From Escherichia coli (lineage in GTDB: Bacteria > Pseudomonadota > Gammaproteobacteria > Enterobacterales > Enterobacteriaceae), in assembly GCF_003334815.1 (NCBI RefSeq), contig NZ_QOWO01000010.1: 64,000 bases of DNA; one strand, written 5' to 3'. Below the pieces are notes generated by a model. It was given only the letters and a program-made list of their open reading frames with translations, was not told the origin of the DNA and searched no databases. The number at the start of each line of letters is the position of its first letter. Positions within the stretch are counted from its first letter, which is position 1. The position numbers and the translations under genes were made by a program. This document shows positions 742 through 9,414 of this stretch, in pieces.

Positions 742-2334
742 CTATAACCCAGGCGCTTTCCATAACGACGTCGTCAGTCCATGATCAACCAGCCCCAGCT
801 GATCCTGATAAACTGCCTGCCACTTATCGCGTGAATCCTGATAAAGTTCATGCTTTTCCGGGTCTGGTGTGTGCGTCCGTTCCCAGCGAACCAGGCGTTC
901 TCCGGTTTCTGCCATTGATGAAAAAATTCCGGCACCGACGCCAGCTGCAATGGCACATCCTAATGCAGTGGCTTCTTTGACCACCGGAATATTGACGGGT
1001 AATCCCGAGACATCAGCGAGAATTTGACTCCATAATTTCCCTTTTGAACCTCCGCCTGCAAAGACTAACGATGAAGGATGAATATTCGAGAAATCAGCAA
1101 TTTGCTGCAAGTTACACGCTGATACAATCGCCGCATTTTCTTCCAGCGCACGGAACAATGTCGCTTTGTTACATTTATCCGGGTCAATGGACAAGTTAAT
1201 AAAGGAAGGCGCAGCGTGATACCAGGTTTTAAAGCGCATTCTGTCGGAGAAGATCGGCATTACGCCCCACGACCCAGGCGGCACCCGACTGGCCATCTCT
1301 TCCAGCAGCGTATAGGTGTCGATGCCTAAACGTTCGGCAATCAGTTTTTCTTCGGCACAGAAAGCATCGCGGAACCAGCGCATGGTGAGTCCGGTAAAAA
1401 AGCTTATAGATTCAGCTTGTACCATGCCAGGAATAACATGAGGATTAACGCGCACGTTCATTTCTGGGTCTGTCACCGGCGCGGCTAAATTTACAACTTG
1501 CTGCCAGAATGTGCCGCCAAGAACCGCGGTTTGTGCCGGACGCACAACGCCTAACCCAAGGCAACCAAGCTGCACGTCGCCTCCTCCAACGACCACCGGA
1601 GTGCCCGCCTTCAGACCGCAGAGTTCCGCCGCTTGTGAACTTACCACGCCCAGCAATGTGCCGGTTTCTTTGACAGGAGAAAGAATATCGGCACGTAGGC
1701 CAGCCATATCCAGCAATGCAGGTTTCCAGTCACGGGTGGTTAGATCAAGAAGTCCCGTGGTGCCAGCGTTAGAGGGATCCACCGCCAGTTCGCCGCTGAG
1801 CATATAGGCCAGCCAGTCGCTGATCATGGTGATGGTTGATGCCTGACGGTAAATATCGGAACGATGGTGCGCCAGCCAAAGTAATCTGGGGATGGCACTT
1901 AAAGCCAGTGTTTGTCCGGTCGCGCGATAAACTTCGTTTTCAAAGGTATTGTTGTGCAGTTCTTTAAGTTCGCTAACTTCGCGTGCCGCTCTGGCATCCA
2001 CATTGGCGCAGGCCCAGATCGGGGCTCCTTCATTATTATATAAAACAATGCCTTCACGCATCGAACATGCCGAAACGGCAGCGATATACTCCGGGGCTAT
2101 GCCGGCGTTGTGCAGCGCCTGGCGCATACACTCACACGCCAGTTGCCAGTTTTTGTTGAGATCAAATTCCATAGAACCAGGAACGTCCGGTACTGCCAGA
2201 TGCCGCCACTCCGCCTGTCCCACTGCTATTTGATTGCCTTCCAGGTCGAATATCACAGCCCGAATACTTCCGGTGCCTGCATCCAGCGCCATCAGGTAGT
2301 ACTTTGATTCTGAAAGGGTAAAGAGTCGAGCCAT
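742..2334 (-). CDS. lsrK: Autoinducer-2 kinase LsrK (FGGY sugar kinase family)
   Basis: 530-aa ORF; recognised protein sequence; position 3' of lsrR and divergent from lsrACDBFG. Confidence 0.93.
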
Positions 2335-2412
2335 TAGATTATCCTCGGCTTATGCGTTCTGTCTGTTCCTCTATACGTTCTCCATCATTCCCGGTAATAA
2401 GGTCATGCAAAT

Positions 2413-3366
2413 TTAACTACGTAAAATCGCCGCTGCTGTGTCCTGATCGGTAACCAGTGCGTTGATATAACCGCCTTTCATTGCAGCGGCAATTGCTTCG
2501 GCTTTATTTTCTCCCCCTGCCACGCCAACCCGGACGGGTATGGTCTTCAGCGCGCTTAAAGGTAAGCCAATCAGTTCGTTATGTATTTTGATATTCGTGA
2601 CAACGTCACCTTTTGCATCAAAAAAGTAGCCTAAAATGTCGCCAACCGCCCCTTTTCGGCCAATCATTAACTGTTCGCCCTGGCTGATATAACCGGAGCG
2701 AATGATTGTCGCATCGTCCTGTTGACTCACAGCACCAATGCCGACAATCGCCACATCCGCTGCTTGCGCGGCTAACAGAACATCTTTGACGCAATTTTCA
2801 TTTTTTAGCGTACGGGCAATGTCAGCGGAGGATGCCCGCAACGGAGCCGGAATAATATTCACACTGCACGCCGCGTTAAGCTGCCCGATTCCCGTCATAT
2901 AAGAACCGACGCCACCGGAGAGCGTGACCAGGCGAATTTGCTGTGACGAAATAAAACCACTTAAGCGTTGCAGCGTATTCATGGTTGCCTCGCCAAAACC
3001 AATCGCCAGCATCTGTTGTGGTTGAAGTAAACTCATCAACATATGCGCCGCGCCTATCCCCAGTCGCCCACCGACATCAGCATCCGCAAGCCCAGGGATC
3101 ACCCGGACATGTTGCAGCGAAAACTGACGACGTAATTGAGTTTCATATTCCAGACAGCCTTCAAAGCGAGAATTAATCTGTACGCGAATAATGCCGGACT
3201 GATGCCCTTTCTCCAGCAATCGCGACACTTTCAAACGTGTCAGGCCGAGACGATCGCTGATCTCGCTCTGGGTCAGCCCGTCGTGATAGTAAAACCACGC
3301 GATCCGCGCGACCTGTTCTTCTTCACACATTCCCTGTTCTGAAATTGCCGAATCGTTGATTGTCAT
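2413..3366 (-). CDS. lsrR: lsr operon repressor LsrR (SorC/DeoR-like, N-terminal HTH)
   Basis: 317-aa ORF; recognised sequence; divergent from lsrA. Confidence 0.93.
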
Positions 3367-3614
3367 AATTCATTCTTCACTTTGAACATATTTAAATCTT
3401 TAATGCAATTGTTCAGTTCTTGCTCATTTATATCTGTGATGGCAACCACAGTTTGACTCTACGAGCATGAACAAACGCAACCCTGAAAATCAAAATAGCA
3501 TAAATTGTGATCTATTCGTCGGAAATATGTGCAATGTCCACCTAAGGTTATGAACAAATTAAAAGCAGAAATACATTTGTTCAAAACTCACCTGCAAAAC
3601 TGAACGGGGGAAAT
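3367..3614. promoter_or_regulatory. Divergent lsrR / lsrA promoter region; CRP-like site TGTGA-N6-CCACA at about 3435..3450
   Basis: 248-bp AT-rich intergenic between divergent genes; near-consensus CRP half-sites read in the sequence. Confidence 0.5.
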
Positions 3615-5150
3615 ATGCAAACGAGTGATACCCGCGCGTTACCGCTACTTTGCGCCCGCTCGGTTTATAAACAGTATTCAGGGGTCAATGTCCTGAAAGG
3701 CATCGATTTTACGTTGCATCAGGGGGAGGTCCACGCCCTGCTCGGCGGCAATGGTGCCGGTAAATCGACGTTAATGAAGATTATTGCCGGTATTACCCCT
3801 GCTGATAGCGGTACGCTGGAGATTGAGGGCAACAACTACGTCAGATTAACGCCAGTTCATGCTCATCAGCTGGGTATTTATCTCGTTCCCCAGGAACCGC
3901 TGCTTTTCCCAAGCCTGTCGATAAAAGAAAACATCCTGTTTGGGCTGGCAAAAAAACAGCTCTCCATGCAGAAAATGAAGAACTTGCTGGCGGCGCTGGG
4001 CTGCCAGTTTGATCTGCATAGTCTGGCAGGATCGCTGGATGTCGCCGATCGCCAAATGGTGGAAATCCTCCGCGGGCTGATGCGCGACTCGCGGATTCTG
4101 ATCCTCGATGAACCTACCGCCTCGCTTACCCCTGCGGAAACCGAACGCTTGTTTAGTCGCTTGCAAGAGCTGCTTGCTACTGGCGTGGGTATTGTTTTTA
4201 TCTCGCATAAGCTGCCGGAAATTCGCCAGATTGCCGATCGAATTAGCGTGATGCGCGACGGAACCATCGCCTTAAGCGGCAAAACCAGCGAACTGTCTAC
4301 CGACGACATTATTCAGGCCATCACCCCAGCGGTACGGGAAAAATCGCTCTCTGCCAGCCAAAAATTATGGCTGGAGTTACCTGGTAACCGCCCACAACAT
4401 GCCGCCGGAACGCCGGTGCTGACACTGGAAAATCTGACCGGCGAAGGTTTCAGGAATGTCAGCCTGACGCTCAATGCCGGAGAAATTCTGGGCCTGGCTG
4501 GGCTGGTGGGGGCCGGACGCACAGAACTGGCCGAGACGCTCTATGGTCTGCGTACTTTGCGTGGCGGACGCATTATGCTGAATGGTAAAGAGATCAATAA
4601 ATTATCCACTGGAGAACGTTTACTGCGCGGTCTGGTTTATCTGCCGGAAGATCGCCAGTCATCCGGACTGAATCTCGATGCTTCGCTGGCCTGGAACGTC
4701 TGCGCCCTTACTCATAACCTTCGTGGATTCTGGGCGAAAACCGCGAAAGATAATGCCACCCTGGAACGTTATCGTCGGGCGCTGAATATTAAATTCAACC
4801 AACCGGAACAAGCTGCACGGACATTATCCGGTGGCAACCAGCAAAAAATCCTCATTGCCAAATGCCTGGAAGCTTCGCCGCAAGTATTGATTGTCGATGA
4901 GCCGACGCGCGGCGTGGATGTCTCGGCCCGTAATGATATCTACCAGCTGTTGCGCAGCATCGCCGCACAAAATGTGGCTGTGCTGCTTATCTCCTCCGAC
5001 CTGGAAGAGATCGAACTGATGGCAGATCGTGTGTATGTGATGCATCAGGGCGAAATTACCCACTCTGCACTGACCGAGCGCGATATTAATGTCGAGACTA
5101 TTATGCGCGTTGCCTTCGGCGATAGTCAGCGTCAGGAGGCGTCATGCTGA
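3615..5150 (+). CDS. lsrA: AI-2 ABC transporter ATP-binding protein LsrA (duplicated ABC domains)
   Basis: 511-aa ORF; Walker [10 protein letters not shown] visible; recognised sequence. Confidence 0.93.
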
Positions 5151-8198: not shown

Positions 8199-8224
8199 TG
8201 TGCATTACTTAACCGGAGTAAGTT

Positions 8225-9100
8225 ATGGCAGATTTAGACGATATTAAAGATGGTAAAGATTTTCGTACCGATCAACCGCAAAAAAATATCCCTTTTACCC
8301 TGAAAGGTTGCGGTGCGCTGGATTGGGGAATGCAGTCACGCTTATCGCGGATATTTAATCCGAAAACGGGTAAAACCGTGATGCTGGCTTTTGACCATGG
8401 TTATTTTCAGGGACCGACTACCGGACTTGAACGCATTGATATAAATATCGCCCCGCTGTTTGAACATGCCGATGTATTAATGTGTACGCGCGGCATTTTG
8501 CGCAGCGTAGTTCCCCCTGCGACCAATAGGCCGGTGGTACTGCGGGCGTCAGGTGCGAACTCTATTCTGGCGGAATTAAGTAATGAAGCCGTGGCGTTAT
8601 CGATGGATGACGCCGTGCGCCTGAACAGTTGCGCGGTGGCGGCGCAGGTTTATATCGGCAGCGAATATGAACATCAGTCGATCAAAAATATTATTCAGCT
8701 GGTTGATGCCGGAATGAAAGTGGGAATGCCGACCATGGCCGTGACTGGCGTGGGCAAAGATATGGTGCGCGATCAGCGTTATTTCTCGCTCGCGACTCGA
8801 ATCGCCGCTGAAATGGGGGCGCAAATTATCAAAACCTATTATGTCGAAAAAGGTTTTGAACGGATTGTTGCCGGATGTCCGGTACCCATTGTTATTGCTG
8901 GCGGTAAAAAATTACCGGAGCGCGAGGCGCTGGAAATGTGCTGGCAGGCTATCGATCAGGGCGCTTCTGGTGTGGATATGGGGCGTAATATTTTCCAGTC
9001 TGACCATCCGGTGGCGATGATGAAAGCCGTACAGGCGGTGGTTCACCATAACGAAACGGCTGATCGGGCATATGAACTCTATCTGAGTGAAAAACAGTAA
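8225..9100 (+). CDS. lsrF: 3-hydroxy-5-phosphonooxypentane-2,4-dione thiolase LsrF (class I aldolase fold)
   Basis: 291-aa ORF; recognised sequence; operon position. Confidence 0.9.
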
Positions 9101-9123
9101 CTGCGGATCTAAGGAGAAGAATT

Positions 9124-9414
9124 ATGCACGTCACACTGGTTGAAATTAACGTTCATGAAGACAAGGTTGACGAGTTTATCGAAGTTTTTCGCCAGAACCA
9201 CCTGGGCTCTGTACAGGAAGAAGGCAATTTGCGCTTCGATGTCTTACAGGACCCGGAAGTGAATTCGCGCTTTTATATCTACGAAGCCTATAAAGATGAA
9301 GACGCAGTGGCGTTCCATAAAACCACGCCCCACTACAAAACCTGTGTCGCGAAACTGGAATCTTTAATGACCGGGCCGCGTAAAAAACGTCTGTTCAATG
9401 GTTTGATGCCGTGA
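9124..9414 (+). CDS. lsrG: Phospho-AI-2 isomerase LsrG
   Basis: 96-aa ORF; recognised sequence; last gene of lsr operon. Confidence 0.9.

Follow-up and report, generated by a model that had tools for sequence, protein, structure and literature searches.

The lsr loci of Salmonella enterica serovar Typhimurium and of Escherichia coli K-12 are the closest described systems. The Salmonella locus, lsrACDBFGE with divergent lsrRK, works on the same principle as that of E. coli with regard to transport, kinase, repressor and processing; its lsrE gene is additional, and its chromosomal position is different. In K-12 MG1655, the lsr genes (b1511-b1518) are followed by tam (b1519). The lsr locus in the window, that is, the whole 64-kb stretch of E. 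coli DNA analyzed here, has the same gene order, orientation and junction lengths throughout as that of K-12, and the eight Lsr proteins show no amino-acid difference from their K-12 counterparts. The two sequences are distinguished by three SNPs, at position 4866 in lsrA (synonymous), at position 3483 in the control region and at position 614 downstream of lsrK. In addition, the yneO pseudogene beside lsr carries IS1 in this strain, unlike in K-12. On the basis of the sequence, it is almost certain that the window contains the Lsr (LuxS-regulated) system of E. coli in its canonical form, and that tqsA, found elsewhere in the window, is a separate core gene.

The eight lsr genes

The coordinates of the lsr genes were taken from a mechanical list of open reading frames. 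On the minus strand, lsrK (742..2334) encodes the autoinducer-2 kinase of 530 residues (NCBIfam model NF008187, 1000.9 bits against 528, the curated cutoff), and lsrR (2413..3366) encodes the repressor released by phospho-AI-2, of 317 residues (NF011947, 618.6 against 486). The former is identical to K-12 b1511 in both nucleotide and amino-acid sequence, and the latter is identical to b1512. The other six genes lie on the plus strand. The transporter is encoded by lsrA (3615..5150; ABC transporter ATPase, 511 residues; NF011967, 958.3 against 586), in which the synonymous difference from K-12 is found, and by two permease genes, lsrC (5144..6172; 342 residues; NF011961, 669 against 388) and lsrD (6172..7164; 330 residues; NF011612, 597.3 against 500). 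These are followed by lsrB (7176..8198), which encodes the periplasmic AI-2 binding protein (340 residues; NF011937, 700.1 against 384), by lsrF (8225..9100), which encodes the 3-hydroxy-5-phosphonooxypentane-2,4-dione thiolase (291 residues; NF006081, 559.9 against 297), and by lsrG (9124..9414), which encodes the phospho-DPD isomerase (96 residues; NF007791, 191.8 against 135). The last five genes, lsrC to lsrG, are identical to those of K-12.

All eight genes start with ATG and have an uninterrupted frame, and a frame check of each of them found no internal stop. Each protein matched its own NCBIfam equivalog model from end to end, far above the curated cutoff. In a genome with 100% identity across window positions 500-9800, PGAP/RefSeq places all eight genes, lsrK and lsrR included, at the same coordinates. 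The original prediction that the lsr genes are intact was thus borne out, and the frameshift or premature stop that it had named as its refutation was looked for in every lsr gene and not found. The overlaps it had described, 7 nt between lsrA and lsrC (5144-5150) and 1 nt between lsrC and lsrD (6172), also follow from the coordinates. The genes are arranged in the order K-R / A-C-D-B-F-G, with lsrR on the minus strand adjoining lsrA on the plus strand.

LsrA, LsrC, LsrD and LsrB also showed secondary matches to the ribose, allose, arabinose and rhamnose ABC importers (RbsABC, AlsABC, AraFGH and a RhaS-type binding protein). The scores of these matches were far below the curated cutoffs, as seen for RbsA (391.6 against 745) and RhaS (252.2 against 342). 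The secondary matches reflect shared ancestry with sugar uptake systems.

Downstream of lsrG, tam (9471..10229, plus strand) is annotated by PGAP as trans-aconitate methyltransferase. A search of the 56 bp that separate the two genes revealed no terminator-like site, and this spacer folds no more stably than shuffled sequences do (z = -0.48). A recent comparative study counted tam among the lsr operon genes. It is probable that tam is co-transcribed as the final gene of the lsr unit. An Rfam scan of the whole window gave no match in or near lsr or tqsA, and hence no hidden RNA element.

The lsrR/lsrA control region and its surroundings

The divergent control region between lsrR and lsrA spans 248 bp (3367..3614), the length given in the original prediction, and 247 of its 248 bases are the same as in K-12. 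LsrR boxes and two CRP boxes, CRPI and CRPII, have been mapped within the intergenic region in PMC5137460, where the order is given as p-lsrR boxes, then CRPII and CRPI, and last the p-lsrA boxes (Fig. 2), and where the p-lsrR-box is located at -237 to -197 from the lsrA ATG, corresponding to window positions 3378-3418. Inside this p-lsrR-box lies the lsrR-proximal LsrR operator (3383..3415), an inverted repeat, I3, of the form TGAACA-N21-TGTTCA. The lsrA-proximal LsrR operator (3547..3587; -68 to -28 from the lsrA ATG) is the inverted repeat I1, GTTATGAACAAAT-N15-ATTTGTTCAAAAC, the 13-nt arms of which are 92% complementary, and it matches the p-lsrA boxes described in PMC5137460.

Between the two operators, two CRP boxes were found, both the same in K-12. 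The box distal to lsrA (3435..3450), TGTGATGGCAACCACA, has one mismatch to TGTGA-N6-TCACA, while in the proximal box (3506..3521), TGTGATCTATTCGTCG, the left half is consensus and the right half is degenerate. From the box order in PMC5137460, we infer that the former is CRPII and the latter CRPI. The operator repeats and the CRP boxes sit at the published relative positions. The CRP-like site of the original prediction is therefore present, at 3435-3450, but the single site has to be replaced by two described CRP boxes and two LsrR boxes.

Published work indicates that lsr expression needs CRP and that the action of CRP is independent of LsrR. The CRP consensus was not enriched in the whole window, where 32 matches with at most two mismatches were found against 27.4 expected. 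The significance of the CRP sites therefore rests not on the motif count but on the region being nearly identical to that of K-12, where it has been studied experimentally. A scan for the sigma-70 consensus gave no promoter-like match inside 3367-3614, as is expected for weak, activator-dependent promoters. For promoters of this kind the scan is uninformative, and it lends no independent support to those of lsr.

The only base of the control region that differs from K-12 is at 3483 (C in place of the K-12 G), -132 from the lsrA ATG, and it raises the question of whether a locus intact in structure might be differently regulated in this strain, either through this substitution or through the nearby IS1. 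The substitution lies between the two CRP boxes, and single-base changes near CRPI can change the strength of the lsr promoter according to PMC5137460. An IS1 end is also close, at window positions 1-77. The substitution, however, falls outside every described LsrR, CRP and CytR-like box, and many natural isolates, of human, dog, pig and water origin, have the same sequence at 100% identity. The IS1 end lies 665 bp past the 3' end of lsrK, within another gene, yneO, which was already a pseudogene. A search for the junction in complete genomes led to strain H53, the one top match examined, in which IS1 lies about 590 bp deeper into yneO and thus represents a different insertion. We consider it extremely unlikely that regulation of the locus is altered in either way. 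It is likewise very unlikely, if a little less so, that the G-to-C change at 3483, present in many isolates, is a natural variant affecting at what threshold or how strongly lsr is induced in them.

tqsA and the distribution of lsr in E. coli

The original prediction had placed the AI-2 exporter gene tqsA 46 kb from lsr in the same window. The position (55568..56602, plus strand) and identity were verified. The product, an AI-2E family transporter of 344 residues, matched the subfamily model NF008930 over residues 1-344 of 344 (672.6 against 318) and, over its full length, the solved TqsA structure in PDB 7nb6 (344-residue chain, E = 1e-208); PGAP names it 'AI-2 transporter TqsA'. Compared with K-12 tqsA/ydgG (b1601), there are no nucleotide differences in the gene and no amino-acid differences in the protein. 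Export of AI-2 by TqsA is predicted; the sources for the name are the annotation 'autoinducer 2 exporter' and, reportedly, Herzberg et al. 2006.

The shared window does not amount to a functional linkage. Since lsr and tqsA lie in one 64-kb window and are both annotated as AI-2 related, it could be supposed that selection holds them together as a supra-operonic neighborhood for AI-2 import and export. They are separated, however, by about 45 unrelated genes, including the mar operon, ynfEFGH-dmsD, mlc and mdtJI, and their spacing is variable. The two loci are 46,153 bp apart in this window, against 66,623 bp in K-12. The 20.5 kb by which the gap is shorter here correspond to exactly one Qin prophage, which is absent from the window. 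In strain SCU-104 the distance is larger still than in K-12, with a full lambdoid prophage between the two; because of this prophage, SCU-104 is not collinear with the window beyond ydfJ, and strain 51008369SK1 (99.94-99.97% identity) was used in its place as the collinear reference genome.

The two also differ in their distribution. Among 5426 complete E. coli genomes, 4175 contain the lsr locus and 5420 contain tqsA, which is thus essentially universal, so that more than 1,200 genomes have tqsA without lsr. Many of the lsr-less genomes in this set keep just the last ~60 bp of lsrG, and the flanking backbone is retained in an lsr-deleted UTI strain. As the genome distributions of tqsA and lsr are independent, the supra-operonic neighborhood is effectively refuted, and we assign it a negligible probability. 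The membership of tqsA in an AI-2 neighborhood was accordingly rejected on the differing distributions and the variable spacing. We conclude that tqsA is a separate core gene and not part of the lsr locus, and that the shared window reflects the order of the chromosome backbone and not a functional cluster. The presence of tqsA across genomes does not track that of lsr, and tqsA is probably not co-regulated with it.

The lsr operon is a known presence/absence polymorphism in E. coli (PMC3595036). Judging from its genes, the strain would fall among the roughly three-quarters of E. coli able to take up and quench AI-2. Since the locus is polymorphic in the species, finding it intact is mildly informative, yet not new.

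Proposed working and comparison with known systems

The steps of the mechanism are established knowledge from K-12 and Salmonella, and their operation here is deduced from identity to K-12. Given the 100% identity of the proteins to the characterized K-12 proteins, the locus is expected to mediate internalization, phosphorylation and degradation of AI-2. Extracellular AI-2 would be bound by LsrB in the periplasm, imported by LsrACD and phosphorylated by LsrK. Phospho-AI-2 would then free LsrR from the two operators of the control region, leading to derepression of lsrRK and lsrACDBFG(-tam). Transcription would need cAMP-CRP at the two CRP boxes, and sugars would therefore shut the system off. 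Phospho-DPD would be isomerized by LsrG, and LsrF together with CoA would cleave the product into dihydroxyacetone phosphate and acetyl-CoA, by which the signal would be ended.

Nothing in the sequence contradicts the canonical reading. The locus is already known biology, with no new mechanism, component or arrangement, and its significance beyond annotation is slight. It had been called well-characterized biology from the outset, and correctly so. The proteins are identical to those of K-12, and the NCBIfam Lsr equivalog models by which they were recognized span the systems of both E. coli and Salmonella.

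Integrity and extent of the lsr genes

The lsr and tqsA coordinates were taken from a six-frame ORF list of the window. The minus strand carries lsrK (742-2334, 530 aa) and lsrR (2413-3366, 317 aa). The plus strand carries lsrA (3615-5150, 511 aa), lsrC (5144-6172, 342 aa), lsrD (6172-7164, 330 aa), lsrB (7176-8198, 340 aa), lsrF (8225-9100, 291 aa) and lsrG (9124-9414, 96 aa). These coordinates are the same as those of the original prediction, and the ORF coordinates also confirmed the overlaps that it had described (7 nt for lsrA/lsrC, 1 nt for lsrC/lsrD) and the divergent control region of 248 bp (3367-3614). 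All eight Lsr proteins matched their own NCBIfam equivalog models over the full length, with scores far in excess of the curated cutoffs (1000.9 bits versus 528 for LsrK, 700.1 versus 384 for LsrB and 191.8 versus 135 for LsrG), and their scores against sugar-kinase and sugar-ABC relatives were well below the cutoffs of those families. Many E. coli chromosomes are 100% identical to the window across the 9.3-kb lsr stretch, and the RefSeq/PGAP gene calls in these chromosomes have equal coordinates. A frameshift or stop was sought in all eight genes by comparison with K-12, and none was found. The genes are thus intact, as had been claimed.

The tam gene (9471-10229) begins 56 bp after lsrG. No terminator-like site was found in the lsrG-tam spacer, shuffled versions of the spacer fold as well as the real one (z = -0.48), and tam belongs to the lsr operon gene set of a recent comparative study. 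These facts argue that the transcription unit is probably lsrACDBFG-tam.

The Rfam scan showed no RNA families in or near the lsr genes. Its sole match in the window was a full-length STnc560 Hfq-binding sRNA (24860-25073, minus strand, 281 bits), overlapping the small-protein gene mgtT (24866-24968/24970 in PGAP) and the last bases of mgtS. This is presumably the MgrR locus.

In the lowest-ranked genomes of the sampled ranking, only about the last 60 bp of lsrG are left of lsr. The remnant in E. coli strain 4/0 (6001-6063 of locus L009) corresponds to window 9351-9414. The remnant is flanked by hipBA and tam, as seen in one such UTI isolate. The deletion spans yneO to most of lsrG. Several unrelated isolates of this ranking have a remnant with identical coordinates, which suggests one ancestral deletion.

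Two neighboring genes deserve mention. The first 77 bp of the window are the terminal 77 bp of IS1 (77/77 match to K-12 IS1A), joined at 77/78 to the 5' part (78-211) of a yneO/ECSE_1600-family autotransporter gene, a pseudogene in the annotations of SCU-104, 51008369SK1 and K-12. Clinical strain H53, the one top-ranked complete genome examined, lacks this junction, and its IS1 lies deeper in the gene by about 590 bp. The gene has therefore been struck repeatedly. On the other side, dgcF (13032-14018, minus strand) is called "incomplete, missing N-terminus" by PGAP in two near-identical reference strains. In a UTI strain the corresponding position is occupied by a sensor-domain diguanylate cyclase of 472 aa, and dgcF of the near-identical strains is therefore probably a natural N-terminal truncation.

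The lsrR/lsrA control region

Two inverted repeats on TGAACA/TGTTCA were found in the control region. One (TGAACA-N21-TGTTCA, 3383-3415) adjoins lsrR, and the other (3547-3587), with 13-nt arms that are 92% complementary, adjoins lsrA. The published p-lsrR-box, at -237 to -197 from the lsrA ATG (PMC5137460), corresponds to window 3378-3418 and contains the former repeat.

The CRP-like site of the original prediction is present, but not as a single site, since there are two CRP-type boxes. The box TGTGATGGCAACCACA (3435-3450) departs from the 16-bp core at one position, and in TGTGATCTATTCGTCG (3506-3521) the left half is consensus and the right half degenerate. The published order is p-lsrR, CRPII, CRPI and p-lsrA, with TGTGCAAT beside CRPI (PMC5137460); TGTGCAAT occurs at 3528-3535 in the window. 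From this order and placement, taken from the text of that paper and not its figure, we infer that 3435-3450 is CRPII and 3506-3521 is CRPI. Over the whole window the CRP motif is not enriched (32 matches versus 27.4 expected), and function is therefore argued from identity to the K-12 region, where lsr expression needs CRP, acting independently of LsrR (bioRxiv 10.64898/2026.06.09.730415).

The control region differs from that of K-12 MG1655 by one base, position 3483 being C in the window and G in K-12. This substitution lies between the two CRP boxes, outside every described box, and the C is common to many natural isolates at 100% identity. It is very unlikely that this common allele tunes lsr expression.

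Relationship between lsr and tqsA

The tqsA gene, annotated as an AI-2 exporter, was found intact at its predicted place (55568-56602, plus strand, 344 aa). TqsA matched the AI-2E transporter model from end to end (672.6 versus a cutoff of 318) and all 344 residues of the solved TqsA chain 7nb6; the gene shows no nucleotide differences from K-12 b1601.

The lsr-tqsA gap of 46,153 bp holds some 45 unrelated genes, among them uxaB, glsB, sad, marRAB, eamA, dcp, rspAB, speG, ynfEFGH-dmsD, clcB, mlc, asr and mdtJI. The two loci are 66,623 bp apart in K-12, and the difference of 20,470 bp matches the length of the cryptic prophage Qin (20,469 bp); the gap in the window is shorter because Qin is absent. 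Here ydfJ (about 33127-34494) is full length. At 34399-34417, inside this gene or at its 5' end, the K-12 alignments from the two sides of Qin share 19 bp. This overlap is probably the unoccupied attachment core, which in K-12 would be present at both ends of Qin. SCU-104, 100% identical to the window in lsr, carries a complete lambdoid prophage at this site (window ~34400; loci L002, 35010-50000, and L003) with terminase, portal, capsid, tail and tail-fibre genes, whereas the window has none. Strains differ from one another at the Qin site, a hotspot of variation.

Among 5426 complete E. coli genomes, tqsA (at least 80% coverage) is present in 5420 and the lsr locus in 4175. Given these unlike distributions, the variable gap and the unrelated genes within it, we rejected any functional weight for the proximity of tqsA to lsr and concluded that the two are inherited independently.

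Comparison with the K-12 Lsr system

The mechanism known from the K-12 and Salmonella Lsr system may be carried over to the window by sequence identity. AI-2 would be bound by LsrB, imported by LsrACD and phosphorylated by LsrK. Phospho-AI-2 would release LsrR from both operators, derepressing both divergent units. Transcriptional drive would come from cAMP-CRP, with the system repressed by sugars, and LsrG and LsrF would convert phospho-DPD to dihydroxyacetone phosphate and acetyl-CoA.

The intact locus is modest information on the strain and adds nothing new on the biology, which the original prediction rightly regarded as well characterised. In comparison with K-12 MG1655, the strain of the original characterisation of the system, the eight Lsr proteins are identical in amino-acid sequence, the single change in lsrA (4866) is synonymous, and the intergenic spacers, control region excepted, are identical.
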